Source of the DNA: Candidatus Woesearchaeota archaeon
GTDB taxonomy: Archaea; Nanobdellota; Nanobdellia; Woesearchaeales; JAHWIC01
Assembly (NCBI GenBank): GCA_019322485.1
Contig: JAHWIK010000015.1
Location: 23,216 to 87,215, forward strand
Direction: 5' to 3'
Length of the DNA stretch: 64,000 bases
The translations under genes were made by a program, and so were the position numbers. Numbering within the stretch: position 1 is the stretch's first letter; every line of letters begins with the position of its first letter. The notes below the pieces were generated by a model. The model searched no databases and had not been told where the DNA came from. It worked only from the letters and a program-made list of their open reading frames with translations. This document shows, piece after piece, positions 9,044-59,395 of this stretch.

Positions 9044-9059
9044 AAATTTAAATTATATG

Positions 9060-24838: not shown

Positions 24839-26016
24839 TTTTTCTTCCTCTTTTTAGGCTTTAGTTTCTTTATCATTATTATCAATGCTGCAGCTATAAT
24901 AGCTAAGGCAACTGCCACATACAACAATGGAGATACCTTTCTTTCTGCTTCGTGCAGCTCTATTGTAAACTCCCTTTCAAAGGTTTTATCTTTATAGTAA
25001 GCCTTTGCCTTTAGTTCATAAGATCCAAGCTCCAGCTCATGCGCTTCCCAATGAAGCCTTACAGAGCTGTTCCTGTTTGGTTCGATATCAATCCTGTTTG
25101 CTTCCATAGCTGCAATTACTGTGCCATTCCTGATAATATCTGCAGTCAGGTTAACATCCTCAAGCTCTTTATTCCAGTTTGACCCTAAGAACATATTTAT
25201 CCTGTTGATTTTATCAACAACAGCAGTTCTTGTTCCTAAGAAAATCAGCACCCCTTCTTCACCAATCCTAAAACTTCCAGTTTCTTCTACTGCTTTTCCG
25301 GAAAACTTAATGATTGATTCTGCATCATACTCACCAGGCTTGAACAGGAACTTCTTTATGGTTAATTGGTTTTCATGACTTTTTCCAGGCTCAATAGTAA
25401 ATGTTGCTTTTGGCAGGGATAGTATCTTCTTCTCTGTATTTCCCAGAATCTTATAACCAAGCACTACATCATGGAATCCATTTACAAGTGCAGCTTTGTA
25501 CAGGCTTGCAACTTTCTCTTTATTCTCATATATGTTAAGGTCATTCTCTATTCCTCCAATTGTTATTGCGCCTTTGTTTTCCATTACTGTTGTAAATTTC
25601 ATAAGATATTGGCTGTCATCAATAACCAAAAGCTCTGTTTTAAGGTATTCCTCAGGATACGGAACAAATAAATTAACCGTATGATGTACTGATGGCTTTG
25701 TTGTTACTGTTCCTGAACCTGCTGGTTCTTCATATACAACTATCTTAGCCTGATGCTCGCCAGGCCCGAAAGGCCCTGATAGGTTAAAGCTGAATTCTTT
25801 TGGGCCTATTACAACCCCTTCACGCGCAATCTCCACGTCAAGCTCACCTTCAACACCAATTGTAATCCTTGTTGGAAGGTTTGATGAAGGTATAACTGTA
25901 AAAACACCTGAATGCTCTTTATTCCCAAAGAAATCTGTCTTTGCGGGCATTGCCCCTAAAGCAAACACAGCGTCTATTGAAAGCACCAATATAATAAATA
26001 AAATCCATTTTTTCAT
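24835..26016 (-). CDS. secreted beta-rich protein with a C-terminal TM anchor and basic tail
   Basis: Signal 'ILFIILVLSIDAVFA'. C-terminal 'LLYVAVALAIIAAALIIMIKKLKPKKRKKK'. 4-nt overlap with the giant gene. Confidence 0.55.
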   Translation of the reverse strand: MKKWILFIILVLSIDAVFALGAMPAKTDFFGNKEHSGVFTVIPSSNLPTRITIGVEGELDVEIAREGVVIGPKEFSFNLSGPFGPGEHQAKIVVYEEPAGSGTVTTKPSVHHTVNLFVPYPEEYLKTELLVIDDSQYLMKFTTVMENKGAITIGGIENDLNIYENKEKVASLYKAALVNGFHDVVLGYKILGNTEKKILSLPKATFTIEPGKSHENQLTIKKFLFKPGEYDAESIIKFSGKAVEETGSFRIGEEGVLIFLGTRTAVVDKINRINMFLGSNWNKELEDVNLTADIIRNGTVIAAMEANRIDIEPNRNSSVRLHWEAHELELGSYELKAKAYYKDKTFEREFTIELHEAERKVSPLLYVAVALAIIAAALIIMIKKLKPKKRKKK

Positions 26017-32000: not shown

Positions 32001-32063
32001 TAAGAGGATAATACAAAGTACTAATTTAATAATTTCAGATATCTTTTTTGTTTTATCTTTCAT
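26013..32063 (-). CDS. giant (2016 aa) surface protein with about 15 Cys/Asp/Asn calcium-binding-like repeats and C-terminal Ig/FN3-like domains
   Basis: N-terminal TM/signal. Repeated 'C-x-D-x-x-DND-x-D...DC-x-D-x-DC' units, e.g. CSDGFDNDQDGELDC, CTDGVDNDLDRY, CIDGKDNDLDFY. The C-terminal 'RPTFTWYNA...YFWRVRAY' is FN3-like. Confidence 0.8.
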   Translation of the reverse strand: MKDKTKKISEIIKLVLCIILLLVSSLNFFIIPDGKELSSITEITGGASSSGTVGFFLLRVADTSNNYRRRVFYEDGSVINLTVIGEGIIENLKANFSCMDSNYADGAETVTNTAGNNYSISYTISQSNTVTNVNNSEDSTCPVGEECHRTCTIPVTSGRRLNGTVQLAFYEGKAALNYAWYVGYVTRAANCAAGVDNSNYFLENNTCSSVFYNPADSSYYYGAKDVDFSIKKKNTPDVVETHCANNADDDGDGKIDCEDSDCASIVYGEYYIVGGSNTNKQGTPAWTCNKTAAGWRDDPPYDPGDLDGSLQCIDGGTCDASCAPNLCTGTASNTAVTYTYKIQPEALFSMRLYQTSQITGYTAYFKVWQFNTSLWQENPGDFWILNYSATTGLSGKTTSANSIIAQSGPNPPSDPTPYTQSTLDNVLKAMMNTTNNFYGMYGLVLNRIFNGSAYDFKFNINISDDGVRDEHDISCADSYDNDLDYTTDCIDIDCDAYIGSTSANPDGTYPLCAYQNESKYAATNNSCTDGFDNDDDGDTDCHYNAGTWDTDCNNTYILNSSWLSYNVGGINGTCELGVETICNDLFDNDRDRAFDCNTTAFFTGGVIQYLSNPTNPRSTYSGGGTYPHGEYDCFNDSNCPINESGITCIDGKDNDLDFYSGLPGAGADCRMVEYDIDCNSSVLPAGTCQLIFETSCSDGFDNDQDGELDCNTTSTGASTTNPNYQYGAGGSNIAHGEYDCQSTCNVTNYWENDGANCSDNKDNDLDYYTITGWTGTQYSATNNQYGGGMDCRYNYDGNHYPDADCDGVDMGPGKCELGHEINCTDGYDNDLDNAYNPGGNRTSASGGYDCDDYDCANDSACPTTETASLCTDGVDNDLDRYVYNITDYLLDSNRVENLSGGIDCIYYAYGLTPNQFWPYAIAYDSYRYDQDCNDTAIGPSGQNCELIIERNCTDVFDNDQDYYISQMQNPGWTNASYQYHFGANTYLQDGDCNDYSCYNNSACPGRENYTCSPTGCNSTQNWCLDSIDNDLDNYLSDGINLSTAAGAGIDCAWNNYDSDCNNTYINDSGNIGLCTIRWEYNCSDGVDNDQDLGTYYVGESGSAHAGANTGEDCDDYNCYAVQESGLYVCTDDGSGLSIVEQTCNDTLDNDLDAYTWNGTEYETNDASGTDCGDPDCNGLLGPGDILCALFEEMYFDPFDDTLCGDYNSSGTTAYSMDNDGDNLANCYDTGCYHQGLCRVCPPEENVTLDSCMDGLNNEYEYQDEYISKTNYDPNEINASLNDGVYDCRDSDCDGIVGVWSTSQGICNSASAGTGYRTTESACTDSYDNDFDNSVDCEDSDCSSGASCLAPYTNSLAACTLKCSDAAAVSYIGGEPPDYSVNTNWGGGTPDLTYTEYHWRGKNLTFTFTDSATNVNGKTIQIYLGSASATYVPLDYEMNASNSGIYGTDSGNFNVQYSAQSGYHYQAVLIEYSGAYPNQILNLTFWITVPDNDTIVQNSSFSYYVSTSIGGVEQNADVTQYILETEPPQAPVFVKTTPADDDYTTSRLRMIKTDNTVTRLSASDTVYVRVNATDSGTWNSGVELCQFNDGTGWVNETSAYDCRYALTLSDGLNTIYARAVDGVGNIGPNTSLTIDVRTLPKQTTGFFCIDTNCSTSYPTKDYYVPTETLNVAVNFTSTYGFTANASGCVVYAEKNSPGSRISLGSVPLASTGMCNGTVSLSGLSEGYYTVEVELRDDNDTRTVSGELPWSNGNSKENIWVCDYTQTYNGYTCKDACEREEANRPSKVILKSPESGNTTTELRPTFTWYNATYNGSTTAKYEIEIDDSPIFTSLDYSRGNLSEGSNNETSHTLISDLELDKTYFWRVRAYHSIISGEWSDVWNFTLSSYIAINLTRDVVDFGVVIPGFSESTEDDSPLPLLLENVGNLIVNISINATDLFETVPNPNESYQFAIGVNESGSFTSATTTLTPMPSNSTPAIYNLNWEDASDTAEIDLNATVPLLEPSGQKNSTILVRTT

Positions 32064-32212
32064 TATTCTATTAACACCACTTTTACTTTTTTGTTAGCCC
32101 AGTGTTTAGGAACGTAGATTTGAGCACCGTTGCCGCTGTGTTTTGCGGTCTTCTCAATAACCTCATAACCTTCCATTTCCATTTGAATCGGCTTTCTCTT
32201 TAGGCGTTTCAT
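32063..32212 (-). CDS. 49-aa AbrB/SpoVT-like (DUF2080-like) mini-protein, copy 1
   Basis: My own translation, below the ORF-track cutoff: MKRLKRKPIQMEMEGYEVIEKTAKHSGNGAQIYVPKHWANKKVKVVLIE. Its stop TAA shares 1 nt with the giant gene's ATG (TAATG). Confidence 0.55.
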   Translation of the reverse strand: MKRLKRKPIQMEMEGYEVIEKTAKHSGNGAQIYVPKHWANKKVKVVLIE

Positions 32213-32352
32213 TATTCTATTAACACCACCTTGACTTTTTTGTTAGCCCAGTGTTTAGGAACGTAGATTTGAGCACCGTTGCCGCTGTGTTTTGCAGTCT
32301 TCTCAACTACCTCATGCCCTTCTATTTTCATCTGAATTGGCTTACTTTTCAT
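32212..32352 (-). CDS. 46-aa AbrB/SpoVT-like (DUF2080-like) mini-protein, copy 2
   Basis: My own translation: MKSKPIQMKIEGHEVVEKTAKHSGNGAQIYVPKHWANKKVKVVLIE. It makes a TAATG junction with copy 1. The C-terminal 30 aa are identical to copy 1. Confidence 0.55.
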   Translation of the reverse strand: MKSKPIQMKIEGHEVVEKTAKHSGNGAQIYVPKHWANKKVKVVLIE

Positions 32353-33996: not shown

Positions 33997-35889
33997 ATGG
34001 TTAAAGAGGAGTTAGATAGAAGTCACTTTCTTGATTTAGTCAGTAGTCCGAAGGATTTGAGGCTGTTGAATAAGCAGCAGTTAGATATGCTTGCTGAGGA
34101 ATTAAGAAGGCTAATAATTGAAACTGTAAGCAAGACAGGCGGCCACTTAGCGTCCAGCCTTGGTGTTATTGAATTAACTATTGCTTTGCATTATGTTTTT
34201 GACTCACCAAATGACAAGATAGTATGGGATGTTGGACATCAGGCTTATGCACATAAGCTGTTAACAGGAAGAAAAAATAAGTTCCATACCTTAAGGCAGC
34301 ACAAGGGCATAGCTGGTTTTCCAAAATCAAAGGAGAGCCCTCACGATGCCTTTGATACTGGACACAGCTCAACAGCAATATCAGCAGCTTTAGGAATAGC
34401 AGCTGCTCGCGATTTAAAGCATGAAAAAAACAAGGTGATAGCTGTTATTGGAGACGGAGCTTTAACTGGCGGAATGTCTTTTGAAGCCTTAAATCATGCT
34501 GGCTCATTAAAGAAAGACCTCATAGTAATCCTTAATGATAATGAGATGTCAATAAGCAAGAATGTAGGTGCTTTATCCTCTTATCTTTCAAAGCTGGTAT
34601 CAAAGCCTGGTTATGTCGACAGAAGAAAGAAAGTAGAAAGGATTTTAAGGGGGATACCTGGCCTGAGAAGGCAGGCTGCTAAGGTTTTTGGAATCGAGGA
34701 TACAATAAGGGCTTTAGCAGCTACAACTCCTGGCCTGATATTCAGGGAGCTTGGTTTTAGGTATTTTGGACCTGTTGATGGCCATAATATCGAGCAGATG
34801 ATAAAAACATTAGAGAACATAGAACAGCTTAAAGGTCCTATATTGCTTCATGTCATAACAAAAAAAGGGAAAGGCTATAGCTATGCAGAAGCTGACAGGA
34901 CAAGGTTTCATGGCATTGCGCCATTCAACATAGAGAATGGTGAAAAGAAGCACAAGAGCAGCGTTACATACACAACAGCATTCTCAAGATGTTTGACAAA
35001 GCTTGCAAAGCAGGACAAAAGGGTAGTTGCAATAACAGCAGCAATGAAGCCTGGAACAGGATTAGACCAGTTTGCAGGAATGTTTCCAGACAGGTTATTT
35101 GACGTCGGCATAGCAGAGCAGCATGCAGTTACATTTGCAGCTGGCTTGGCTAAGAACGGCTATAAGCCGGTATGCGCGATTTATTCTACTTTCCTGCAAA
35201 GGGCTTATGACCAGATTGTGCACGATGTTTGTTTGCAGAACCTGCCTGTTGTCTTTGCAATTGATAGAGCTGGCTTGGTCGGAGAGGACGGACCAACACA
35301 TCATGGAAGTTTTGATTTATCTTATCTGAGGCATATACCAAACATGACTGTAATGGCTCCAAAGGACGAGAATGAACTGGGGCATATGCTAAAAACAGCT
35401 TTAGAGATTGACGGGCCGGTTGCAGTAAGATACCCAAGAGGTACGGGCTTGGGGGTTGCAATACAGAACCCATACCACCCAATAGAATTAGGAAAAGCAG
35501 AAGTAATGCAGAAAGGAAAAGATTTGGCAATATTAGCAGTTGGTTCTTGCGTTGATATGGCGAATAAGGCTGCTGAGAAACTGGGGAAGAATAAAATAAA
35601 TGCAACCGTTGTTAATGTAAGGTTTGTAAAGCCTCTGGACGAGAAACTAATACTGAACCTAGCAAAGAAACACAGGAAACTGATTACTATAGAGGAGAAT
35701 GCATTAGATGGCGGTTTTGGTTCTGGTGTGCTGGAATTGTTGGAGCAGTATAACACCAAGGCAACGGTAAAAAGAATTGGAATACCTGATAAATTTGTAG
35801 AGCACGGTTCAATGTCAATCTTAAGAGAAAAAATTGGATTAACTGAGGATAATATAGTGAAGGAAGCGAAGTCGTTGATGGCAAAATGA
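33997..35889 (+). CDS. dxs: 1-deoxy-D-xylulose-5-phosphate synthase
   Basis: 'GGHLASSLGVIELTIALHYVF', 'DVGHQAYAHKLLTGR', 'GDGALTGGMSFEALNHAG' and 'DGPTHHG'. Confidence 0.95.
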   Translation: MVKEELDRSHFLDLVSSPKDLRLLNKQQLDMLAEELRRLIIETVSKTGGHLASSLGVIELTIALHYVFDSPNDKIVWDVGHQAYAHKLLTGRKNKFHTLRQHKGIAGFPKSKESPHDAFDTGHSSTAISAALGIAAARDLKHEKNKVIAVIGDGALTGGMSFEALNHAGSLKKDLIVILNDNEMSISKNVGALSSYLSKLVSKPGYVDRRKKVERILRGIPGLRRQAAKVFGIEDTIRALAATTPGLIFRELGFRYFGPVDGHNIEQMIKTLENIEQLKGPILLHVITKKGKGYSYAEADRTRFHGIAPFNIENGEKKHKSSVTYTTAFSRCLTKLAKQDKRVVAITAAMKPGTGLDQFAGMFPDRLFDVGIAEQHAVTFAAGLAKNGYKPVCAIYSTFLQRAYDQIVHDVCLQNLPVVFAIDRAGLVGEDGPTHHGSFDLSYLRHIPNMTVMAPKDENELGHMLKTALEIDGPVAVRYPRGTGLGVAIQNPYHPIELGKAEVMQKGKDLAILAVGSCVDMANKAAEKLGKNKINATVVNVRFVKPLDEKLILNLAKKHRKLITIEENALDGGFGSGVLELLEQYNTKATVKRIGIPDKFVEHGSMSILREKIGLTEDNIVKEAKSLMAK

Positions 35890-36923
35890 GAAGCAAAACA
35901 AAAGAAATCAGGATTGGAAAACTGAAGATTGGCGGAGATAATCCTATTGCAATACAGTCAATGACTAATACTGATACAAAAGACGAGGAAGCAACAATAA
36001 AACAGATTCATGAGCTAGAGGAGAATGGCTGCGAGATAGTTAGGGTTTCTGTTCCTGACAAGGAATCGTTGCTTTCATTAAGAGCAATAAAAGAAAACAT
36101 AAGCATTCCATTGGTTGCTGATATTCATTTTGACCATAAATTAGCTGTAGAAGCTGCAAGGATTGCAGACAAGATAAGGATTAACCCAGGAAATATTGGG
36201 AAAGAGAACCTGAAAGAGGTTGTTGATGCTGTTATGGATTCAAATATTCCGATGAGGGTGGGGATTAACCTAGGTTCTTTGGAAAAAGACATTGAGAAGA
36301 AGTTTGGCCTTACTGCATTAGGTATGGTTGAGAGCGCAATGAGGTCTGTGAAAGAGATAGAAAGGCTTGGCTTCTACAATATGGTTATTTCATTAAAGGC
36401 TTCTGATGTGTTAAAGACAATAGAAGCTTACAGATTGTTTTCACAGAGGTCACAATACCCTTTACACGTCGGTATAACCGAGTCTGGGAGCAGTTTTACA
36501 GGAACTGTTAATTCATCAGTTGGAATTGGAGCTTTATTATTGCAGGGAATTGGAGATACAATCCGCGTTTCATTATCAGCTGAGCCTGTTGAAGAGGTTA
36601 AAGTTGGCTGGCAGATTCTGAAAGCACTTAGGCTTAGGAAGAGGGGGATTGACATAACAAGCTGCCCAACGTGCGCAAGAAAAGGCATAGATGTTATCAA
36701 TATTGTCAAGGAGCTTGAGCAAAGAACCTCAAAAATGAACAAGCCTTTGCATATTGCAGTTATGGGCTGCGGTGTTAATGGTCCAGGAGAAGCTAAAGAA
36801 GCTGATATTGGTGTTGTCGGCGGAAAAGGAAATGTTTTGCTTTACAAGAATGGAATGATGGTCGGCAATATTGAGGGAGATGTTCTTGAAAGGTTGATGA
36901 AGGAGATAGAGAATTCAAAATGA
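35886..36923 (+). CDS. ispG: 4-hydroxy-3-methylbut-2-en-1-yl diphosphate synthase
   Basis: 'IGGDNPIAIQSMTNT', 'RINPGNIG', 'SCPTCAR' and 'AVMGCGVNGPGEA'. ATGA overlap with dxs. Confidence 0.9.
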   Translation: MRSKTKEIRIGKLKIGGDNPIAIQSMTNTDTKDEEATIKQIHELEENGCEIVRVSVPDKESLLSLRAIKENISIPLVADIHFDHKLAVEAARIADKIRINPGNIGKENLKEVVDAVMDSNIPMRVGINLGSLEKDIEKKFGLTALGMVESAMRSVKEIERLGFYNMVISLKASDVLKTIEAYRLFSQRSQYPLHVGITESGSSFTGTVNSSVGIGALLLQGIGDTIRVSLSAEPVEEVKVGWQILKALRLRKRGIDITSCPTCARKGIDVINIVKELEQRTSKMNKPLHIAVMGCGVNGPGEAKEADIGVVGGKGNVLLYKNGMMVGNIEGDVLERLMKEIENSK

Positions 36924-38305
36924 GCTGGAAATTAATCACATTAAAACAGTATCCGATGTTCTCGAGATGGTGGATACATGAAGCGTTTCTCCACGATATG
37001 AAAGATACTTTAGGTATGAATTTTAAAATGTACAAATCGCTCTATAGCGGGACTTATGCTGATAGTGATGAGGTTGAAAAGTTAAGGTCTATGTTAATAT
37101 CTAAACTTGAAAAAGATATTGATTCAATTAGGAAATTATGTGAGAATTGGAAACATGATTGTGATGAGCTTATTAGATTTACAAAAGAATTAGAAAAATC
37201 GGACTTCTCAAAAAACTCTGATGAGGAATTAGTTAATTTATCAGAGAATTGCATTAAAAAATTAAGAAGAAGCGCTTCATATATTTATCTGTCAGTTGTT
37301 TTGGATGAATATTTTCAGAATTGGCTGAATAAAATACTTGAAGCTAAGGTTCAGGACCAGAATGAGAGGACAAAATACTTCCAAATTCTTACATCTCCAA
37401 CAAAAAATACTAAATTAATTGACGCTAAGAAGGTATTAATTGAGATTTCTAAAGTTGTTAAAGAGAAAGGTCTTGAGGGAGCAGAGGACTTAATCAAAGA
37501 TTATGTATCTAAATTTAAATGGCTTGGATATGATACTGGAATTGGAAGTGATTTAACTATAGAACAAACAAAGGATAAGATTTCTAATATTCTTGAGCAA
37601 AAACAGCACGACTCTGATGTTAAAAATAGGGATGAGGTCTTGTCTGAGTTGGATCTCAATGAAAAAGATAAAGAATTACTTGACTTGATGGACGAACTTA
37701 TTTTCCTAAGGACTTATAGGGCTGAAAGCAATATGGTTGCAGGAGCTGATATAAGGCCTATTCTTGAAGAACTTGCAAAAAGAGCCAATACAAATTATGA
37801 TAATCTAGTTCAATTAACCATTGATGAAATAAAAGACTCAATAAAGTCAAAAAAAGTAGACTTGAAGAAGATTGAGGAGAGAAAGAATAAGTATGGCTTG
37901 TTAATGGTCGATGGAAAGAATACAATCTACAGTGGAGATGAAGTGGATAAAGTAGAGGAAAAGGTTGAAGTTCCTGAAGGATTGACAGAGTTAAAAGGAT
38001 TAGTAGCACACCATGGAAATAAGAGGGGCCATGTTAAGATTGTTTTGAGGCATAAAGACTTTGATAAGATTGAATTTGGAGATATTTTGGTAACAAAGAT
38101 GACTAATCCTGATTTTATAGTTGTTTTAGAACAGTGTTCTGGAATAATTACAGACATTGGAGGGATAACCTCTCATGCAGCGATTGTTGCACGAGAACTA
38201 AACAAGCCATGCATTACAGGAACTCAATATGCTACAAAAGTCTTGAAAGATGGTGACTTAGTTGAGCTTGATACAGATAAAGGCATTGTAAAGATAATAA
38301 AATGA
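36920..38305 (+). CDS. uncharacterised protein with a C-terminal PEP-utilising-enzyme mobile (swivel phospho-His) domain
   Basis: C-terminal 'GIITDIGGITSHAAIVARELNKPCITG'. The N-terminal ~360 aa are helical and K/E-rich, with no ATP-grasp motif I can see. ATGA overlaps on both sides. Confidence 0.7.
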   Translation: MSWKLITLKQYPMFSRWWIHEAFLHDMKDTLGMNFKMYKSLYSGTYADSDEVEKLRSMLISKLEKDIDSIRKLCENWKHDCDELIRFTKELEKSDFSKNSDEELVNLSENCIKKLRRSASYIYLSVVLDEYFQNWLNKILEAKVQDQNERTKYFQILTSPTKNTKLIDAKKVLIEISKVVKEKGLEGAEDLIKDYVSKFKWLGYDTGIGSDLTIEQTKDKISNILEQKQHDSDVKNRDEVLSELDLNEKDKELLDLMDELIFLRTYRAESNMVAGADIRPILEELAKRANTNYDNLVQLTIDEIKDSIKSKKVDLKKIEERKNKYGLLMVDGKNTIYSGDEVDKVEEKVEVPEGLTELKGLVAHHGNKRGHVKIVLRHKDFDKIEFGDILVTKMTNPDFIVVLEQCSGIITDIGGITSHAAIVARELNKPCITGTQYATKVLKDGDLVELDTDKGIVKIIK

Positions 38306-39453
38306 ACATAGCAATCATAACAGCAGCTGGAAAAGGAACAAGGATGAATGAAAAAGTCAATAAAATATTGTTATCTTTAGTCGATAAATCAATAATTGAA
38401 GAAACAATCGAGGTTTTTGAGGCGTGTAAAGATATTGATGAGATAATTATTGTTGGAAACAGCGATGATATTGAATCATTAAACAAAATCAATGAAAAAA
38501 ATAATTATAAAAAAATTAAAAAAATCATTGAAGGCGGAGAACAACGGCAGGATTCAGTGTTTAATGGAATAAAATCCATTGAAAATGCGAGTAATGATGA
38601 TATTTTATTGATTCATAATGGTGCAAACCCCCTTGTAGACGAGAAAACGATTCTTGAATGTATTAAAGAAGCAAAGGAGCATGGGGCAGCTGTTGCTGCA
38701 ATGCCTGCAAAAGATACAATAAAACAGGTTGAGAATGGTTTTGTTGCTAAAACATTGGATAGAAAGCAGCTCTGGCAGATGCAGACACCGCAAACAATCC
38801 AGTTTGGGCTTGCGAAAGAGGCTTTTGAAAAGGCATTTGCTGATAATTTCTATGGAACTGATGATGTTGGGCTTGTAGAAAGGCTTGGAAAAAAGGTTAA
38901 GATTGTTGAGTGCAATACTGAGAACGTAAAAATCACAACAAAGAATGATTTAGAACAAGCAAGACTCTTGCTTAATGCTTCTGTTGTTGGAATCGGACAG
39001 GATTCCCACAAATTTACCGACGAGAAAAAGGATTTAGTTTTGGGTGGTGTAGTAATTCCAAATGAGCAGGGCTTAGAAGCAAACTCTGATGGTGATGTCA
39101 TCCTGCATGCCTTGTTTAATGCTTTAAGCCAGGCAGCTGGAGAAAAATCATTGGGAAATTATGCAGATTCAATGTGTGAGAATGGAATAAAAGACAGCAG
39201 AGAGTATCTAAGAGTGATTTTAGACATAATCAACAAGAAAAATTACAAGATAAATAATGTTGGCTTTATGATAGAAGCAAAAAAGCCAAGGCTAGGGGCT
39301 AATGAAGACAGAATAAAAGAGAATATTGCAAATTTATTGGGAATAACTAAAGATAAAGTTGGAATAACAGCAACCTCAGGAGAGGAATTAACTCCATTTG
39401 GCCAGGGCAAGGCAATACAGGTATTTTCAGTTGCAAGCTTAACAAGAAAATAA
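38302..39453 (+). CDS. ispDF: bifunctional IspD/IspF (MEP cytidylyltransferase / MEcPP synthase)
   Basis: N-terminal 'IITAAGKGTRM' is IspD-like. C-terminal 'GIGQDSHKF...SDGDVILHAL' is IspF-like. Confidence 0.9.
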   Translation: MNIAIITAAGKGTRMNEKVNKILLSLVDKSIIEETIEVFEACKDIDEIIIVGNSDDIESLNKINEKNNYKKIKKIIEGGEQRQDSVFNGIKSIENASNDDILLIHNGANPLVDEKTILECIKEAKEHGAAVAAMPAKDTIKQVENGFVAKTLDRKQLWQMQTPQTIQFGLAKEAFEKAFADNFYGTDDVGLVERLGKKVKIVECNTENVKITTKNDLEQARLLLNASVVGIGQDSHKFTDEKKDLVLGGVVIPNEQGLEANSDGDVILHALFNALSQAAGEKSLGNYADSMCENGIKDSREYLRVILDIINKKNYKINNVGFMIEAKKPRLGANEDRIKENIANLLGITKDKVGITATSGEELTPFGQGKAIQVFSVASLTRK

Positions 39454-39474
39454 TGAAAATCAAAGATTTTCAGT

Positions 39475-40344
39475 ATGTCAAAAACCAAGGTTTTTAACAT
39501 GATCCAGCTAAAAGCACACGCAAAGATAAACCTGACCTTAGATGTACTTGCAAGGCTGGATGACGGCTATCATCGGATAGAATCTATAAAACAGCAGGTT
39601 GGTTTGCACGATAAAATCTCATTAGGGCCATTGGATGATATAAAGGTAATCTGCAGCCATCCTAACATAACCACAAAAGAAAATCTTGTCTTTAAAACAG
39701 CATTGTTGCTAAAAAATGAATTTAATGTAGCAGAGGGAGCGAAGATAACAATAGAAAAAAATATTCCATTAGCTGCTGGCTTGGCTGGAGGCTCATCAGA
39801 CGCAGCAGCAACCCTGGTAGGATTAAACAAGCTTTGGAAACTTGAGCTTGATGAGCAGGAACTGACAAAATTAGCTGCAGAGATTGGAATGGATGTTCCT
39901 TTTTCTGTTGTTGGCGGTTCTTGTTTTGCAGAGGGCAAAGGCACTAAACTAAGCAGGATAGAGCTGCCTGAGATGCATGTGCTGTTAATCAACCCTGGTT
40001 TTGAAGTCTCTACAAGAACAGCTTACCAAAGCCTTGACTTGTCAAGAACAGGAAAGGCAATGGCAACAAAGAAACTATTGGAAGTAAGGAACATGGGTGT
40101 GAGAGAAATATCAAAGGTCATGCATAATGACTTTGAAGCTGTGGTGCTGGGGAAGCATTCTATTCTGAAAGAGATAAAGGGCAAATTAATGGAGAATAAT
40201 GCCTTGAATGCAATAGTATCTGGCTCAGGGCCAACTGTTTTTGGCTTGTTTGAGGATGAATCAACTATAAGCAAGGCTTACGAATCTCTTAAAGAAACTT
40301 ATCCATTTGTATTCATGACAAAAACAGTAGCGAGGAAAGAATGA
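39475..40344 (+). CDS. ispE: 4-diphosphocytidyl-2-C-methyl-D-erythritol kinase
   Basis: 'KAHAKINLTLDV', 'PLAAGLAGGSSDAAATL' and 'SGSGPTVFG' (GHMP kinase motifs). Confidence 0.9.
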   Translation: MSKTKVFNMIQLKAHAKINLTLDVLARLDDGYHRIESIKQQVGLHDKISLGPLDDIKVICSHPNITTKENLVFKTALLLKNEFNVAEGAKITIEKNIPLAAGLAGGSSDAAATLVGLNKLWKLELDEQELTKLAAEIGMDVPFSVVGGSCFAEGKGTKLSRIELPEMHVLLINPGFEVSTRTAYQSLDLSRTGKAMATKKLLEVRNMGVREISKVMHNDFEAVVLGKHSILKEIKGKLMENNALNAIVSGSGPTVFGLFEDESTISKAYESLKETYPFVFMTKTVARKE

Positions 40345-41153
40345 GAATTAAAAAAGCAAAGCACTCTGGATTTTGTTTTGGTGTTAAGAGGGCAGTAGAG
40401 TCAGCGCTGGGCACAGAGGGGGAAGTAAAGACATTAGGCCCATTAATACATAATCCTCAGTTTATAGCAGAGCTTGAGAAAAAGGGAATAAAATCTGTTG
40501 ATTCTGTCGATGAGGTTGAAAAAGGCTCTTTGATAATAAGGGCGCATGGTGTCCCGGATTCTGTTATAGAAAAGGCCAGGGGAAAAGGGCTTAATGTAAC
40601 TGATTTAACATGTCCTTTTGTCAGGAAGGTGCATGATTATGCTAAGGAATTCTACAAACAAGGCTATAGTGTGGTTGTGGTTGGAGAGAAAAACCATCCT
40701 GAGGTTGTAGGAATAATTGGCAACATTGATGGTATTGTTGTGGGCAATGCAGATGATGCAAGGAAACTTGGCAGGTTCGAAAAGATTGGAGTGGTTGCAC
40801 AAACAACACAATCACTTGAGAACTTTAACAATGTTGTTGATGAGCTGAAAAAGCATACAGATGAGTTAAAGGTACATAATACCATATGCTCTGAAACAGA
40901 TTCAAGGCAGAAACACGCTATTGAGCTGGCAAAAGAGGTTGACTTGATGATAGTTATTGGGGGGAGAAACTCTGGAAATACCAGAAGGCTTGCCCAGCTT
41001 TGCTCTAAATTAACTGAAACAAAGCATATTGAGTCTGAGGATGAGTTAAAGGAGGGGTGGTTTGCAGGCAAGGGTTGTGTTGGGATAACAGCTGGCGCTT
41101 CAACACCGGACAGCACAATCAAGAAGATTGAGGATAGAATCAGGGAGATATGA
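40341..41153 (+). CDS. ispH: 4-hydroxy-3-methylbut-2-enyl diphosphate reductase
   Basis: 'GFCFGVKRAV', 'GPLIHNPQ', 'LTCPFVRKVH', 'NTICSET' and 'GASTP'. Confidence 0.9.
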   Translation: MRIKKAKHSGFCFGVKRAVESALGTEGEVKTLGPLIHNPQFIAELEKKGIKSVDSVDEVEKGSLIIRAHGVPDSVIEKARGKGLNVTDLTCPFVRKVHDYAKEFYKQGYSVVVVGEKNHPEVVGIIGNIDGIVVGNADDARKLGRFEKIGVVAQTTQSLENFNNVVDELKKHTDELKVHNTICSETDSRQKHAIELAKEVDLMIVIGGRNSGNTRRLAQLCSKLTETKHIESEDELKEGWFAGKGCVGITAGASTPDSTIKKIEDRIREI

Positions 41154-42246
41154 GATTATGGAATTCATACAAGCAGTAGGGCAATACAAGGGAATAGTCA
41201 ATAAGACTTTAAGCACGTTCTTTGATAATCATATCAATAAAACACAGGATGGCTTTCTAAAATTTAATTATTCTACACTTAGGGATTATGTTTTGCGGGA
41301 CGGCAAGAGATTAAGGCCAATCACACTGATAATGGCTTACAAGTCAATAACTGATAATGATGAGCAGAAGATTTACATGCCTTCTTTGAGTATGGAACTG
41401 TTCCATGCTTCCTCATTAATACATGATGATATAATGGATGAGGATGATTTAAGGAGGGGAAAAGAGAGCATGCATACCCTGTTTAACCAGTGGTTTGTTG
41501 ATAATCACGGCCAGGCAGGCTATAATGGGCCTATATTTAACCAGTTATCTACTAAGTTTGGGGTTTCTATGGCAATACTGCAGGGAAATATACTGATTGC
41601 TTTAGGTGAGTCCTGCTTGTCAGGCTCCTCATTTGCCCCGGAACAGATAAAGGCTGCTTTAATGGTGTGCAATAACACAAACAAGGTAGTTAATGAAGGC
41701 CAGATACAGGACATTGTTCTGGAGACAAAGAGGGAGTTTACTGAAAATGATTATTTGAGTATGATTGCTAAGAAAACAGGCAAATTATTCAGCACATCTC
41801 TTGAGATAGGTGCAGTATTTGCAGGTGCAACAGATTCTCAGAGAAAAGCGCTTGATAATTATGCATTATCTGCAGCAACAACATTCCAGATACAGGACGA
41901 TATAATGGACATAAGCCCTGATATGAAAAAGGGGCATGAGGTTGGCTCTGATATAAAGCAGGGAAAAAGAACCTTGCTTGTTATGAAGGCCCTGGAAAAA
42001 GGGGATGAAGGCCAAAAAAAGGTTTTGTTTGATGCTCTTGGCAATGAGAAAGCAACACCAGAAGAAATAGAGATTGCTATCGATGTTATGCACGCTACAG
42101 GGGCAGTTGATTATGCAAAGAATCTTGCAGCTGATATGATTAAGAAAGGAAAGGATGCGCTTAAGGAAGCAGACCCTGCTTTATCTTCTGATGGATTGAA
42201 GTTCTTTAATGATTTAGCAGATTATATGGTAAATAGAAATGTCTAG
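41128..42246 (+). CDS. trans-polyprenyl (GGPP-type) diphosphate synthase
   Basis: FARM 'LIHDDIMDEDDLRRG' and SARM 'FQIQDDIMD'. The true start may be the ATG at 41159 (MEFIQAV...). Confidence 0.85.
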   Translation: MRIESGRYEIMEFIQAVGQYKGIVNKTLSTFFDNHINKTQDGFLKFNYSTLRDYVLRDGKRLRPITLIMAYKSITDNDEQKIYMPSLSMELFHASSLIHDDIMDEDDLRRGKESMHTLFNQWFVDNHGQAGYNGPIFNQLSTKFGVSMAILQGNILIALGESCLSGSSFAPEQIKAALMVCNNTNKVVNEGQIQDIVLETKREFTENDYLSMIAKKTGKLFSTSLEIGAVFAGATDSQRKALDNYALSAATTFQIQDDIMDISPDMKKGHEVGSDIKQGKRTLLVMKALEKGDEGQKKVLFDALGNEKATPEEIEIAIDVMHATGAVDYAKNLAADMIKKGKDALKEADPALSSDGLKFFNDLADYMVNRNV

Positions 42247-43393: not shown

Positions 43394-43565
43394 TAGCCCC
43401 GGGCAGATTCGAACTGCCGTCCCCGGCTGTTTTCGATGGAAATCGCAAAACTGTTGGAAATCTTTGATTTCCACCACCAAAAGCAGGGATGATTTGTCGG
43501 AAATCGGAGATTTCTGAGCAAATTGAAAATCTCCGATTTTCAATTGACCACTACACTACGGGGCT
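43394..43565 (-). tRNA. tRNA-Gln(UUG) with two introns (51 nt in the D-arm, 48 nt at 37/38)
   Basis: Hand fold gives acceptor AGCCCCG/CGGGGCU (A1-U72) and D arm GUGU-AGUGGUCAA-[intron]-UCAU. The AC stem is CCUGC/GCCGG with a U-C mismatch, and the loop is UUUUGG|A. The T arm is GGCAG-UUCGAAU-CUGCC. The mature length is 73 nt. Intron 2 forms a full hBHBh' motif. Confidence 0.7.
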
Positions 43566-50619: not shown

Positions 50620-52584
50620 ATGGTACCAGATAATGGAGAAAAGGATACTGGTAACTCTACAGAAGGACCTCCAGAGGACACCCAAGGAGAACCTACAGAG
50701 AGCCCTACAGAAGCCTCTACAGAAGAACCTGAAGAAGAAAAGCTTCTAGTAATAAGACCTTTTGATGAGGTTAAGGCGGATTTGATAAGGCTATCTGAAT
50801 CAACGGATGATGCTGAGAAGGAAGTGATTCGTGGTAGGTTACATGAGGACTTCGATTCTGTCTATCCTATGTTAAAGGGACTGCCTCGCGGGGAAGATGC
50901 TACACTTCTTTCCTACCCTGGGCAAGAGAATATGGTTTCTGCTGTGGATATGGTTGCTAAAAAACCCAAAAAGAAATATGTAGATATGGCAAGCCAACAA
51001 CTAGGCAGGCTTTATGAATCGTATCAGGCAGAGGTTCTTCAAGCGAAATGGAATACTGAAGCTGAGAAACTGCAGTCAGCAGTAGCAAACCCACAAGAGA
51101 CAATAACCCATCTAAGAACTTCCCTTTCTTCTCATCTGTCAGGGCTTCATAGAGATGTTCGTGCTTGTACCATCGACCTATTAATAAAATATAGGGACTT
51201 TAAAATAGGGGAAGATCCTGCTCGGGATGAGGAGAGGATCACTGATAGTTTGCTTGACCCTGAAGATGGGTATTACATCTTAGGTTATACCATAAGGATT
51301 TTTGAGGATGTAAGCGCTAGATATAATGATGTCCGGCTTAAGCAACTTGCACTGAATCCAAGTATTGCTGATACAGCCCGTACCTTATTGCAGATAGTTA
51401 ATGAGGCTCGAAAGATAACTGGGGAGGCTGGCCTTAGTTTAGAAATCTCGTGCAGGGAAGAACTTGAAGCTATGCTGGAGAAAGGAGAGCCTTCTCCTGC
51501 TGATTCAGAGAGGATACTTGCCACTAATAACGAAATACTAATACAACTTGGTAATTTCTTGCTTGATGCTGTTCAAGGCACAAGTTTAGAAGGTAAGTTG
51601 GATTATAAGAAACAAGACTTGCCTGAGAGAGAGCAGGCAGATAAACCAAAAGCGCCACGCAGGGAATATAAAAGGTCTGCTCCGAGCAGGGTATTTTCAA
51701 ATGAATCTCACTCTGAACTTGCAGGTCTTATTTGCACGCTTTCTGCTTCAGAGAATAACGAGGAGTGGGCAGAGATGAGGGGGTGTATAAAAGGAATGCT
51801 GAGTGAGGCGTATAGAGCAATAGGGATAACAGAGGCACATGTGAACGAAATACGTTTGACCTATCCTAAAGAGGAGGAGTTATGTTCTTTGGCTGATAAA
51901 ATTCCTGAACAAAAGGAGACAACTTATGAATTAACTGCTAAGGTGAGAGCTCTTTATGAAGCTGGCACTGCTTACACTGCCCTGGCTTTTTGGAAGAGAT
52001 GGGTGGCTTCATTAAAGGAAGAGTTGGCAACTGAATCTATGGTATATGATACCTGGAAAGGTGCTTTATCAACTTATATGAAGCATTGCGCACCTGAATC
52101 TAGGGACGAAGTTAATAAACGTTTGATAGCGCGTAGAAGGTCAGTCATGGGAGAAGAAGAAAGCCAGAAGTATAGTGATGAGGAAATACTTTTAGCAGTA
52201 AATTCCGAGCTGGATGACAGAGGTAGGCCTGATTTAATGTTAGATCATTCTGCAATATTTTTTGAGGTTGCTATAGAAGATTACGCTCGTTTAGCAAATG
52301 ATGTATGTAAGAAATGGAGGGGCACAACTGAGTTTATTGGTGCTATGCTTAGGTTTTGTGGCGGTGTTTCTCCTTTGGCAGGCTCGTTAGGTATAACTGC
52401 AGATGATTCAGACAGCACCAAACTTAAGGAGTCGTATGAAAAAGGGCTGGGCTATGTTATGGAAGATGAGCATGACCCAAAAGATGTTGCTAATACTTTA
52501 GGTACTTCAAAGAATGTATTGAAGCAGTACGGGGAAATTTATATTAAAATTCTTGAGAAGGTTGCTGAAGAGAAACAGAAATAA
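50620..52584 (+). CDS. acidic hypothetical protein (654 aa) with a two-fold internal duplication
   Basis: Long ORF with an acidic, low-complexity N-terminus. The two ~300-aa halves are alignable by eye. Its stop codon abuts the 3' end of tRNA-Arg. Confidence 0.6.
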   Translation: MVPDNGEKDTGNSTEGPPEDTQGEPTESPTEASTEEPEEEKLLVIRPFDEVKADLIRLSESTDDAEKEVIRGRLHEDFDSVYPMLKGLPRGEDATLLSYPGQENMVSAVDMVAKKPKKKYVDMASQQLGRLYESYQAEVLQAKWNTEAEKLQSAVANPQETITHLRTSLSSHLSGLHRDVRACTIDLLIKYRDFKIGEDPARDEERITDSLLDPEDGYYILGYTIRIFEDVSARYNDVRLKQLALNPSIADTARTLLQIVNEARKITGEAGLSLEISCREELEAMLEKGEPSPADSERILATNNEILIQLGNFLLDAVQGTSLEGKLDYKKQDLPEREQADKPKAPRREYKRSAPSRVFSNESHSELAGLICTLSASENNEEWAEMRGCIKGMLSEAYRAIGITEAHVNEIRLTYPKEEELCSLADKIPEQKETTYELTAKVRALYEAGTAYTALAFWKRWVASLKEELATESMVYDTWKGALSTYMKHCAPESRDEVNKRLIARRRSVMGEEESQKYSDEEILLAVNSELDDRGRPDLMLDHSAIFFEVAIEDYARLANDVCKKWRGTTEFIGAMLRFCGGVSPLAGSLGITADDSDSTKLKESYEKGLGYVMEDEHDPKDVANTLGTSKNVLKQYGEIYIKILEKVAEEKQK

Positions 52585-52700
52585 TGCCCCTGCCGAGAAT
52601 CGAACTCGGGTCTTCAGGTTTTTGCAAAATTGCCGCAACCTAATATTCTTTTTGGCTATGCCGAACCTTGTTCAGCAAGTATCCACTATACTACAGGGGC
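52585..52700 (-). tRNA. probable tRNA-Arg(GCG) with a 13-nt 37/38 intron and a ~31-nt D-arm insertion
   Basis: Acceptor GCCCCUG/CAGGGGC. T arm CCGAG-UUCGAUU-CUCGG. AC stem UUAGG/CCUGA with loop UUGCGG|A. The mini-intron CAAUUUUGCAAAA gives H = UUGC/GCAA flanked by 3-nt bulges. I could not fix the D-arm boundaries by hand. Confidence 0.6.
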
Positions 52701-52712
52701 AATAATTTGTTT

Positions 52713-57156: not shown

Positions 57157-58272
57157 TTATCTTTGTTCTATTCCTAGGAATACAGGTGCCCTGTTAACGT
57201 TTTCAACAGCCACGTTTATCTGCTGGCTTACTGAAAGGTCACCGTCGCTTACTGTTATTGTTACATCATAGCTGCCTGAATCATCATAGGTTGTATCCCA
57301 CGCAAAGACATTCCCTTCCTGCTCAAATTTGTCGCTATCTGCTGCAAAGGATAGGCCGTCTCCATCTAGGTCAGAGGCTTCTACAACAATTATTACAGGC
57401 TCATTTTCATTAACTATGATGTTGTCTAGTTCTTCCATTTCAGGCGGCCTGTTAACATTTTCAACTGTAATAGCCCATATCTGTGATGTCTCAAGTGTGC
57501 CGTCGGTTATTGATAACTTAATAGTGTGTGAACCAGCACTGTCATAGCCTAGGTCAAATGCGAATGAGGTGTCGGTTGATACTTCCTCGCCATCAATCTT
57601 CCATTCATAATCCAGGTAATCACCATTAAGGTCTGATGCTGATACGCTGAATTCTATGATGTTATCCTCTGCTATGATTAATTCTGTATCTGCTGGATTA
57701 GCAAACTCAATTATTGGGGCCTCTTCTTTTCTGTTTACAATTATTAATACATCCTGTGAAGCAGAAAGGTCTCCATCAGATGCGGTTATTGTTACTGTGT
57801 ATTCACCCTCATCTCCATAAGTAGTTTGCCAATCACCTATGCCATCAAGAGGTGATGTGAATGCGTAAGTTAAAGGGTCTCCATCAGGGTCAGTTGCGTC
57901 AGGTTCTAAGCTGACAAGCTCTGTTTCTTCTACTATGATAACAACTGCTTGCTGGTCAACAACGTCTACATCTTCTAATACTACTTCCTCCTCTTCCTCA
58001 ATAATCTCAATGACCTCTTCAATGTCTTCCTCGACCTCTTCTTCCTCTTCCTCATCTCTTCTGAAGATGTCAAGAGGGCTTGTTCTTTCTTCCTCCTCTT
58101 CCACTTCTTCTTCCTCTTCTGCAACCTCCTCATCTTCTTCACCCTCAACAACAATATCATCCATGCTTATTGTAGAAACATCAGATTTGCCATATATATC
58201 TTCATAGATTTGACATCCACTCAATAAGAACAAGACTATCACACCAATTACAAGTAAATATTTCTTAAACAT
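57157..58272 (-). CDS. lipoprotein paralog with an acidic linker and 3 Ig/cadherin-like 'DPDGD' domains
   Basis: 'LLSGCQ' lipobox, poly-Glu linker, and 'ATDPDGDPLTYAF...WQTTYGDEGEYTVTITASDGDL'. Confidence 0.7.
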   Translation of the reverse strand: MFKKYLLVIGVIVLFLLSGCQIYEDIYGKSDVSTISMDDIVVEGEEDEEVAEEEEEVEEEEERTSPLDIFRRDEEEEEEVEEDIEEVIEIIEEEEEVVLEDVDVVDQQAVVIIVEETELVSLEPDATDPDGDPLTYAFTSPLDGIGDWQTTYGDEGEYTVTITASDGDLSASQDVLIIVNRKEEAPIIEFANPADTELIIAEDNIIEFSVSASDLNGDYLDYEWKIDGEEVSTDTSFAFDLGYDSAGSHTIKLSITDGTLETSQIWAITVENVNRPPEMEELDNIIVNENEPVIIVVEASDLDGDGLSFAADSDKFEQEGNVFAWDTTYDDSGSYDVTITVSDGDLSVSQQINVAVENVNRAPVFLGIEQR

Positions 58273-58456
58273 ATACCAACACCTCCAGGTTTTTGTGTTT
58301 TTATTATTTTTATCATTATAAAATGGGAACTTCTATATAAACTTTATGGTAGTCAAAGCTATAAAACCATTTTTTTTTTACCACTGTTTCCGACGACAAA
58401 CTTAGACTTTTTTCGTAACTGGGTTTGGACGAATCGGAAAAATTTGCTGAAAAATC

Positions 58457-58480
58457 TGAAAAAAATGGGCCCGCTGTGAC
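58457..58480 (-). repeat. orphan 24-nt copy (23/24 identical) of the tRNA-Ile 3' exon plus its T-tract
   Basis: tgaaaaaaatgggcccgcTgtgac here matches tgaaaaaaatgggcccgcCgtgac at 58572..58595. I found no matching 5' acceptor strand upstream. Confidence 0.7.
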
Positions 58481-58573
58481 CTAAGGGTTTCACCCGATAG
58501 ACCCCTGTAGGGAACATAAAGTTCCCTGCCGCAATTTGCTGTATAGTTAAGATTGCGGATTGTTAAGTTTTTG

Positions 58574-58580
58574 AAAAAAA
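58574..58580 (-). terminator. oligo-T tract (T7) directly after tRNA-Ile
   Basis: Seven T residues on the transcribed strand follow the discriminator base. Archaeal termination signals are oligo-T tracts. Confidence 0.5.
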
Positions 58581-58712
58581 TGGGCCCGCCGTGACTTTCT
58601 AGCCACAAGTTTTAGAACTTGATGACATTTGAACACGGGACCACTCGATGTCTGTATTTCGCTTGCGCGAAATGTATCAGTCGAGCGCGCCACCAGACTA
58701 TGCCACGGGCCC
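58581..58712 (-). tRNA. tRNA-Ile(GAU) with two introns (25 nt at 37/38; 33 nt in the T-loop, ~59/60)
   Basis: The fold is GGGCCCG-UG-GCAU-AGUCUGGUG-GCGC-G-CUCGA-CUGAUA|A-UCGAG-UGGUC-CCGUG-UUCAAAU-CACGG-CGGGCCC-A. Intron 1 has a 7-bp h' helix with a GCAA tetraloop and 3-nt bulges. Confidence 0.75.
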
Positions 58713-58728
58713 ACTATCATAACAAAAA

Positions 58729-58856
58729 CGCCTCTGGGCAGATTTTCCCGCCATAAATCTTTCGGATTTAATGCGTCTCGAACTGCCGACCTTGTGATTT
58801 CTTCACCAAAGAATTGGTGTAACAGTCACACGCTCTACCTGCTAAGCTACAGAGGC
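58729..58856 (-). tRNA. tRNA-Asn(GUU) with two introns (21 nt at 37/38; 34 nt in the T-loop)
   Basis: The fold is GCCUCUG-UA-GCUU-AGCAGGUA-GAGC-G-UGUGA-CUGUUA|A-UCACA-AGGUC-GGCAG-UUCGA|AU-CUGCC-CAGAGGC-G. The mature length is 73 nt. Confidence 0.75.
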
Positions 58857-58878
58857 ATTAAGTTCAAGAATTGATACT

Positions 58879-58894
58879 ATATTTATATAATTTT
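58879..58894 (-). promoter_or_regulatory. BRE/TATA promoter for the tRNA-Asn/tRNA-Ile pair
   Basis: The minus strand reads AAAATTATATAAATA, centred about 30 nt upstream of tRNA-Asn position 1. Confidence 0.45.
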
Positions 58895-58900
58895 CTATGG

Positions 58901-59395
58901 CTATGATTTCTTTTTCTTGAGTATAATATATACTATTATTGCAGCTAGAATTGCTGAAGCAAGAATAATGGGGATTGTTATAGTTAACCTTTTTTCCCTT
59001 AAATCAGCTGTCAACACATTTTCTTCTTTTTCATTGTATATGTTTATCTGCTTTGCATCTGGCAGCGAGGGCAGGATTAATGCAAAATCTGTATTATCTA
59101 CCCTAACAAGGCCCCCCTGGGTTTTGCCGTCCATATGAATATCTGTGTAATGTTCTAATGGAACCTCAAATCTGAATGAATATATGACATCATCATCTAC
59201 GGAAATTATTTCTGCCTTATAGCCTGCATCAGGCTGTATCTTTCTGTCGGGATAGTATCCATATGTTTCTATCTCGTCAATAATAGAGACTTTGCCATTA
59301 TCGTAATTGAGATTTAAGATTAATATTTTTTCAGCGCATGCTGCCTGCGCAAATAATAACAGCATTATCATTAAGATAAGTTTTTTAGTTTTCAT
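58901..59395 (-). CDS. secreted protein with a C-terminal TM anchor
   Basis: Signal 'LILMIMLLLFAQAACA'. C-terminal 'IPIILASAILAAIIVYIILKKKKS'. 4-nt overlap with the upstream peptidase gene. Confidence 0.5.
   Translation of the reverse strand: MKTKKLILMIMLLLFAQAACAEKILILNLNYDNGKVSIIDEIETYGYYPDRKIQPDAGYKAEIISVDDDVIYSFRFEVPLEHYTDIHMDGKTQGGLVRVDNTDFALILPSLPDAKQINIYNEKEENVLTADLREKRLTITIPIILASAILAAIIVYIILKKKKS

Follow-up and report, generated by a model that had tools for sequence, protein, structure and literature searches.

A conserved 115-nt insertion module at the 3' end of an intron-bearing tRNA-Ile gene in a Woesearchaeota-like archaeon

The tRNA-Asn/tRNA-Ile cluster and the module at its end

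The 64-kb stretch of DNA analysed here (hereafter the window; ~38% G+C) carries on its minus strand a cluster of two disrupted transfer RNA (tRNA) genes, tRNA-Asn and tRNA-Ile. The tRNA-Ile(GAU) gene is followed, at positions 58457-58571, by a discrete 115-nt insertion module that is the subject of this report. The module consists of a 91-nt segment that holds three hairpins and no open reading frame (ORF), followed by a degenerate second copy of the last tRNA exon and its oligo-T terminator. The proteins encoded in the flanks have their best relatives in metagenome-assembled genomes of Woesearchaeota and Nanoarchaeota, and the host is an uncultured Woesearchaeota-like (DPANN) archaeon. Our searches of its own genome cover the 64-kb window; a Logan contig of the same organism begins just 20 nt before the neighbouring PKD gene, and data set SRR14699980 includes a contig that encodes a PKD protein identical to that of the window.

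Neither ARAGORN with default settings nor Rfam at its gathering threshold calls a single tRNA in the window, because the genes carry non-canonical introns. Once two introns are removed by hand from each gene, ARAGORN calls tRNA-Asn(GTT) at 58856..58729 and tRNA-Ile(GAT) at 58712..58581. The tRNA-Asn gene (58729..58856, minus strand), which stands first in the cluster, is interrupted in its anticodon loop and in its T-loop and yields a weak Rfam tRNA match of 20.4 bits. On the same strand, tRNA-Ile (58581..58712) is made up of exon 1 (58712-58675), a 25-nt anticodon-loop intron (58674-58650), exon 2 (58649-58628), a 33-nt T-loop intron at 59/60 (58627-58595) and exon 3, which runs from U60 to A73 (58594-58581). 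The T-loop intron is placed at 59/60, and exon 3 thereby delimited, because two relatives without this intron (loci L034 and L036) have the T-loop UUCAAAU; the tRNA-Ile exons are identical in six relatives. An earlier sequence-only reading had taken this exon and its T7 tract for the genuine 3' end of tRNA-Ile, and the ARAGORN call on the spliced gene bears this out; the location given for the exon was right, its length one base too short.

The module is set off by a 24-nt direct repeat. The string GTCACRGCGGGCCCATTTTTTTCA occurs only twice in the window, at 58457-58480 and 58572-58595, both times on the minus strand and with a single G/A difference, just as the sequence-only reading had reported, and none of 100 dinucleotide shuffles contains a match. 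The copy within the tRNA gene (58572..58595) comprises the last intron base, exon 3, T7 and CA, and resembles the attL end of an attachment (att) site. The orphan copy (58457..58480) comprises a G, UCACAGCGGGCCCA, T7 and CA, has A64 in place of G64, and resembles an attR end; the att string of the repeat is GTCACRGCRGGCCCATTTTTTCA. The orphan is a second oligo-T stop, not a usable exon.

From the tRNA outwards, again on the minus strand, the intervening DNA begins with an unpaired leader, CAAAAACTTAACAAT (58559..58573), which on the plus strand reads ATTGTTAAGTTTTTG and includes a T5 run. Hairpin 1 follows (58529..58558), with a 7-bp stem CCGCAAT/ATTGCGG and a 16-nt loop (58551-58536), then hairpin 2, AGGGAAC-TTTAT-GTTCCCT (58509..58527), trailed by ACA, and finally a linker, ACAGGGGTCTATC, with hairpin 3 (GGGT-GAA-ACCC) and TTAG (58481..58508). 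All three stems read earlier from the letters (CCGCAAU/AUUGCGG, AGGGAAC/GUUCCCU and GGGU/ACCC) are present on folding. With significance expressed as z against shuffled sequences, the part with hairpins 1 and 2 folds far better than expected both in the window (z = -5.0) and in its homologue from a relative, L032 (z = -3.7), described below.

As the sequence-only reading had noted, no tRNA body precedes the orphan copy: a search with a tRNA model gave no match, and when the 91 nt were compared with the body of tRNA-Ile there was no similarity, 257 of 500 shuffles scoring equally. The idea that the whole segment is a decayed tRNA copy survives only for its last ~45 nt. In L032, the 22 nt leading up to the orphan exon are similar, in corresponding position, to the 3' half of the T-loop intron found in that same genome, a marginal likeness that 10 of 500 shuffles equal; for hairpin 1, hairpin 2 and the leader, no similarity to the tRNA was detected in either genome. 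Rfam 15 gives no match at gathering score in the window, and in 58200-59000 only noise up to E = 10. Boxes of the TTTATATA type precede tRNA-Asn, the tRNA at 43565 and the PKD gene; by direct reading none is seen in 58481-58580.

The spacer between the two tRNA genes (58713-58728) is GTTTTTGTTATGATAGT only, a T5 with 16 nt and no promoter, and L034 has a similar one with T6, while in L001 it is 67 nt long with its own TATA box. Since only 16 nt, with a T5 and without a promoter, lie between tRNA-Asn and the start of tRNA-Ile, oligo-T must be leaky in these organisms, and the essential tRNA-Ile seems to depend on read-through of such a tract.

The introns of these genes merit a word of their own. 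The T-loop introns of tRNA-Asn (CGCATTAAATC...TTTATGGCGGGAAAAT) and tRNA-Ile (CGCCATTAAGC...CTTATGGCTTGGAAGT) have sequence and architecture in common (window 58737-58770 set against L032 ~9023-9053), and their presence varies, with none in the tRNA-Asn of L032 and L034 and none in the tRNA-Ile of L034 and L036. From these comparisons it looks as if T-loop introns were spreading between tRNA genes. In an unrelated DPANN tRNA-Ile (L025/L028, ~5170-5265) a T-loop intron of ~90 nt holds a second GGTTCAAAAA...TTGAAAGT unit and looks like a nested or duplicated intron. On the minus strand of the window, at 43394-43565 and 52584-52701, are two more tRNA genes whose introns are long or multiple; default ARAGORN and Rfam miss both, and the intron mode of ARAGORN returns doubtful calls, a Lys-TTT with an 83-nt intron and a 'Pro-AGG'. 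Standard tools will badly undercount the tRNAs of this genome.

Distribution and constraint among relatives

Syntenic loci of relatives were collected by way of the neighbouring radical-SAM and PKD genes. Locus L001 has the same order of tRNA-Asn, tRNA-Ile and PKD gene, and its flanks align with those of the window across a 115-nt gap bounded by the repeat. An empty site of this kind, with a single tRNA 3' end and colinear flanks, is found in L001, L034, L036, L037 and L039; the plain terminator duplication that the sequence-only reading had named as an outcome that would speak against its claim is not what relatives show. A homologous insert of 121 nt occupies exactly the same site in L032, a metagenome contig (JGI 3300038943), and because this independent assembly has the identical architecture, the arrangement is not an assembly artefact. 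These two, the window and L032, are the carriers compared throughout. A metagenome scan for the repeat recovered nothing but tRNA-Ile genes of the usual multi-intron kind from other archaea, with one 3' end apiece.

The carriers are not sisters. In a tree of the radical-SAM protein the loci group as ((L030/L036, window), L001), (L035, (L034, L032)), so that each carrier has a sister lineage without the insert. The distribution can thus be explained by a single gain with three or more precise losses, or else by two gains. A common origin of the two inserts follows from A64 (CACAG), which both orphan copies share and which appears in none of the ~15 tRNA-Ile genes examined. The acceptor strands of the two orphans differ, CGGGCCC in the window and CAGGCCC in L032; the latter is foreign to the tRNA-Ile of L032 itself and equals the tRNA-Ile allele of L036. 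To judge by the sequences, this would look like an attP copied from another host, the alternative being a chance G-to-A change.

Outside the loop of hairpin 1, the two inserts are identical at 88 of 92 positions (96%). The leader differs at one position (14/15 identical), the stem of hairpin 1 at none, and hairpin 2 is the same throughout (19/19); hairpin 3 reads GGGC-GAA-GCCC in L032, a compensatory change from U-A to C-G. In the 16-nt loop of hairpin 1, which is 19 nt long in L032, only 9 of 16 positions agree (56%; Fisher p = 1e-4 against the 88/92 of the core). By comparison, identity between the same two genomes is 53% at four-fold degenerate sites of the neighbouring radical-SAM gene, 63% over the first 59 nt downstream of the insert, and 36% and 73% in the anticodon-loop and T-loop introns of the tRNAs. 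At the neutral rate, so few differences in the core have a probability of ~1e-20. One loop has diverged at the neutral level while the rest is almost unchanged, which means that the copies have been apart for about as long as their hosts. The comparison thus points to nucleotide-level selection on the stems, the hairpin-2 loop, the linker and the leader, and neutral decay of the insert does not agree with a core at 96% against 53% at four-fold sites. It is unusual for DNA between such repeats to be conserved far above the neutral level, and unexpected that so tiny a cargo should be strongly conserved and yet present or absent among sister lineages.

Beyond the module, towards the promoter of the PKD gene, the stretch at 58340-58430 (minus strand) holds two intergenic blocks, GTCCAAACCYAGTTACGAAAAAA and TTGTCGTCGGAAACAGTGGTAAA, which are conserved well above neutral divergence in all aligned relatives.

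Origin and possible roles of the module

Integrative elements typically leave duplicated tRNA ends behind, and such duplications have been suggested as the way in which archaeal tRNA genes acquire introns and come to be split. The explanation that fits this locus best, and one to which we would give about an even chance, is an att-type duplication of the tRNA 3' end by DNA recombination, flanking a tiny, structured cargo without ORFs that probably forms the trailer of the Asn-Ile transcript. The recombination, at the 3' end of the tRNA, would have generated a direct repeat of the attL/attR type, with the intact tRNA on one side and the displaced fragment on the other. The duplicated unit would have included at least the intron tail, exon 3, the T-run and CA, copied at the DNA level; since L032 keeps a decayed intron tail before its orphan exon, the stretch would have come from an intron-bearing gene. 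Direct repeats permit precise loss, which would explain the patchy distribution. The locus has what such an event leaves behind: a direct repeat of a tRNA end bounding extra DNA, an intact tRNA and, in five relatives, an empty site. Archaeal integrases favour tRNA 3' ends, their att sites can be very short and may reach past the gene, and the tRNA is reconstituted (PMC8371274); the footprint is a tRNA fragment plus a reconstituted gene, and the attP can carry an intron (PMC3293823). The sequence-only reading had listed a scar or att-site duplication among its explanations. The duplication fits best, as a separate unit of 115 nt that close relatives either carry or lack; the decaying scar does not, since the core is strongly constrained.

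Several observations weigh against this explanation. No integrase or recombinase lies between the repeats, where 91 nt are too little for an autonomous element, and Pfam matches to integrases or transposases were found in none of the 40 window ORFs scanned and nowhere near the L032 locus. A second copy of the insert was not found by BLAST or a covariance model over the window and 40 loci, nor by the covariance model in 503 kb of related DNA. Nothing turned up in the phage and plasmid collections, viral contigs gave no match to att or cargo, with two chance matches only in four scans, and hairpin 2 was not found in one metagenome scan; no full-length parent element is known. Support from covariation amounts to a single pair in only two carriers. 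The functional molecule may lie on either strand, as the 91 nt fold at z = -3.9 on the plus strand, against z = -2.2 for the sense strand including the orphan exon. Finally, the patchy pattern could equally reflect one ancient tandem duplication followed by repeated, repeat-mediated deletions.

This last possibility is a serious rival, if on balance an unlikely one. It supposes that replication slippage or unequal recombination produced a segmental tandem duplication of the 3' part of the intron-bearing tRNA-Ile gene once in the ancestor of the clade, with no mobile element involved, that the copy ceased to be recognisable as tRNA and part of it was recruited for a function, and that it was later deleted several times through the repeats. 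The intron-like 22 nt before the L032 orphan speak for it, as do the failure to find a recombinase among the 40 ORFs or at the L032 locus and the divergence of the hairpin-1 loop, which at 56% against a neutral 53% suggests copies as old as the host split. It is opposed by hairpins 1 and 2 and the leader, unlike the tRNA body in both genomes, by the three or more independent precise losses that the tree would require, and by the acceptor allele of another lineage in the L032 orphan. Very much less probable is the suggestion, made in the sequence-only reading, that the orphan is a 3' piece used in trans, in which U60-A73 and its leader would pair with a distant 5' piece (for example of a tRNA-Ile2 with the T-stem CUGUG), to be cut and joined by splicing endonuclease and ligase. 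The genome is indeed rich in non-canonical tRNA introns, including T-loop introns at 59/60, both carriers keep the T-stem strand CACAG, and our search for a partner reached only 64 kb of the genome. Real T-loop introns, however, end in GRA-AG/U (the slash marks the splice junction) in nine loci, from this clade and from five unrelated metagenome loci; GRA pairs with U54-C56, and AGU is the bulge with the 3' splice site, which makes this a relaxed bulge-helix-bulge site. Before the orphan this half signal is absent in the window (UUA-GG/U) and broken in L032 (GGA-AC/C, one base short and without U60). A 6-nt indel between the carriers falls exactly at the orphan junction, the acceptor strands differ, and five close relatives, including both sister lineages, lack the piece. 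The window offers no CUGUG-UUCRAAU partner, no further tRNA start with GGGCCCG (the one other GGGCCCG falls within coding sequence) and no stretch longer than 11 nt that is complementary to the insert; the leader is locked in its own hairpins, and by reading there is no promoter box of its own in 58481-58580. An intron of bulge-helix-bulge type spanning the insert was also considered and is impossible in its geometry (by reading only): as both ends lie in identical repeats, the central helix would have to be the palindrome GGCC, and in the neighbouring helices the U-run cannot pair with CACAGCG. An orphan tRNA 3' exon by itself is not evidence of a split tRNA, and a tempting false positive is removed.

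If the att-type duplication is the right explanation, the most likely expression route, judged from the arrangement of the genes, would be as the trailer of the Asn-Ile transcript. The transcript would read through the T7 of tRNA-Ile and end at the second T7, and tRNase Z would free the trailer at A73 as a small stable RNA. Alternatively, the hairpins may be cis-acting sites in a mini-element that is non-autonomous and relies for movement on a recombinase encoded elsewhere. It is possible, though we put this forward only tentatively, that in the 91-nt core Woesearchaeota-like archaea have a functional element not described before, either a mini integrative element without recombinase at the tRNA-Ile site, mobilised or excised in trans, or a trailer-derived small RNA, which would have been kept by selection since the host split and repeatedly lost via its flanking repeats.

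Two other roles have been weighed for the conserved core. On either strand, it might be a small RNA gene that stands alone and has a promoter to itself, the tRNA end supplying an oligo-T stop or a tRNA-like end for RNase P, tRNase Z or the CCA-adding enzyme; in a plus-strand version the RNA would open with sequence antisense to the 3' end of tRNA-Ile and terminate at the T5 that follows hairpin 1. The constraint on unpaired parts (leader, hairpin-2 loop and linker) and the compensatory pair in hairpin 3 are in its favour. So are the folding of the 91 nt on the plus strand (z = -3.9), where hairpin 2 extends to 9 bp and the T5 follows right after hairpin 1, and the pairing that GGGUCU (58504-58499) can form with GGGCCC of the orphan, which as RGGCCC stays compatible in both carriers with a change from U.G to U-A. 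Set against these are the lack of a TTTATATA-type box within the 91 nt, of any Rfam match even at E = 10, and of any other copy, together with its absence from five close relatives; the 3' domain, which could be read as a tRNA-like minihelix, does not exceed shuffles in stability (z = -0.3 and -1.0). We consider such a gene improbable, a shade more so than the tandem duplication. A small protein gene across the element is the least credible explanation of all, even below the trans-used piece, for all that six-frame translation finds the same frame open in both carriers (68 codons in the window, ~78 in L032), that both indels (3 nt and 6 nt) are multiples of three, and that two of the four core substitutions are synonymous. 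Only those two synonymous changes occur in ~40 codons, against 47% divergence at adjacent four-fold sites, so that coding constraint is rejected and the constraint must lie on the nucleotides themselves. Moreover, the conserved part has neither start codon nor Shine-Dalgarno sequence, the frames upstream differ (T7 against T6), and the ORF would begin in a tRNA intron and cross the terminator of that tRNA; it shares no words with any protein in 5.8 billion clusters, and no gene is called there in L032.

Some further candidates were tried and rejected. A CRISPR-like solitary repeat (GTTCC...GAAAC, 58515-58487) has no array or second copy in the window, and its counterpart in L032 ends in GAAGC. 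By reading, an H/ACA-like RNA, with two hairpins followed by ACA, is excluded by perfect 7-bp stems that leave no pocket and by the lack of a K-turn. Hairpin 1 does not suit a palindromic protein-binding site, as the spacing of its arms shifts from 16 to 19 nt. An element derived from an insertion sequence or a miniature inverted-repeat transposable element would not lack terminal inverted repeats (by reading), would not have a 24-nt repeat, and would not be single-copy in the window and 503 kb of relatives.

Other observations and relation to known systems

At the syntenic cluster of another relative, L040 (NCBI GCA_964447855.1, CAYUUH010000015.1; 2680-3510), an insertion of ~815 nt separates the complete tRNA-Asn gene from an orphan 14-nt copy of its 5' end (GCCTCTGTAGCTTA). 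It contains a single ORF, ~270 codons long, whose end is the GCTTAG of the tRNA itself, and the ORF gives a weak N-terminal match to a helix-turn-helix, has a YFPDF...IIEVTEWK motif and matches PHROG 'endonuclease' families weakly. These features mark the insert as a candidate for a nuclease-encoding mobile element that targets tRNAs, and as a parallel at the same tRNA cluster.

Elsewhere in the window, a complete bacterial-type methylerythritol phosphate/deoxyxylulose phosphate (MEP/DOXP) isoprenoid operon is encoded on the plus strand at 33997-42246 in this archaeal genome, with DXP synthase, GcpE, an IspD-IspF fusion, an IspE-like kinase, LytB and a polyprenyl synthase. A 149-nt tandem repeat (32058-32343; 1.9 copies, 91% matches) lies just outside the 5' end of a 2016-codon ORF at 26013-32063. 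On the minus strand, a 660-codon ORF (15432-17414) matches ribosomal protein L10/P0 over its first ~180 residues only; beyond these it runs on at length in repeat-rich sequence, including tandem repeats at 15897-16245.

Read as a tRNA-end footprint, the module stands in DPANN-type archaea with heavily disrupted tRNA genes, beside a tRNA with a T-loop intron and with intron sequence within the duplicated stretch. Should it be a mini mobile element or a trailer RNA, it would be a new small player in archaeal tRNA-linked genome dynamics.

Several known systems offer comparisons. In E. coli the 3'ETS-leuZ is a spacer or trailer RNA of a tRNA operon that acts as a small RNA. In both, structured sequence directly follows the last tRNA of a polycistronic transcript, from which ordinary 3' processing of the tRNA would free it; the module, however, sits behind a T7 tract and is known from sequence alone. 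The cis-mobilizable elements (CIMEs) of bacteria are non-autonomous, att-flanked elements, kilobases long, that are mobilised in cis or trans and tied to a resident integrative element. Those of Streptococcus resemble the module as short att-bounded DNA at the end of a tRNA or other gene, with no recombinase of its own and a patchy distribution; they differ in that here no recombinase or partner element is seen. Split tRNA genes are known from Nanoarchaeum equitans, Caldivirga maquilingensis and Staphylothermus (PMC3218864). There, too, the sequence ahead of a tRNA 3' fragment is not tRNA, and the archaeon has many tRNA genes that are disrupted. By contrast, the fragment here is only 14 nt long, duplicates an intact adjoining gene, is absent in sister genomes, and comes with no bulge-helix-bulge half site, conserved junction, promoter or partner in reach.

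The closest parallel is with archaeal att repeats such as the 44-bp tRNA-Arg repeat of SSV1 and the tRNA-Thr fragment of Caldiarchaeum subterraneum (PMC3293823, PMC8371274). Compared with these, the module has only 91 nt between its repeats, no integrase or ORF, purifying selection in place of decay, and no known parent. In both, nevertheless, a direct repeat takes in the tRNA 3' end and a few bases beyond, an intact tRNA stands with an orphan fragment that carries a mismatch, the attachment sequence contains intron sequence, and relatives keep the empty site.

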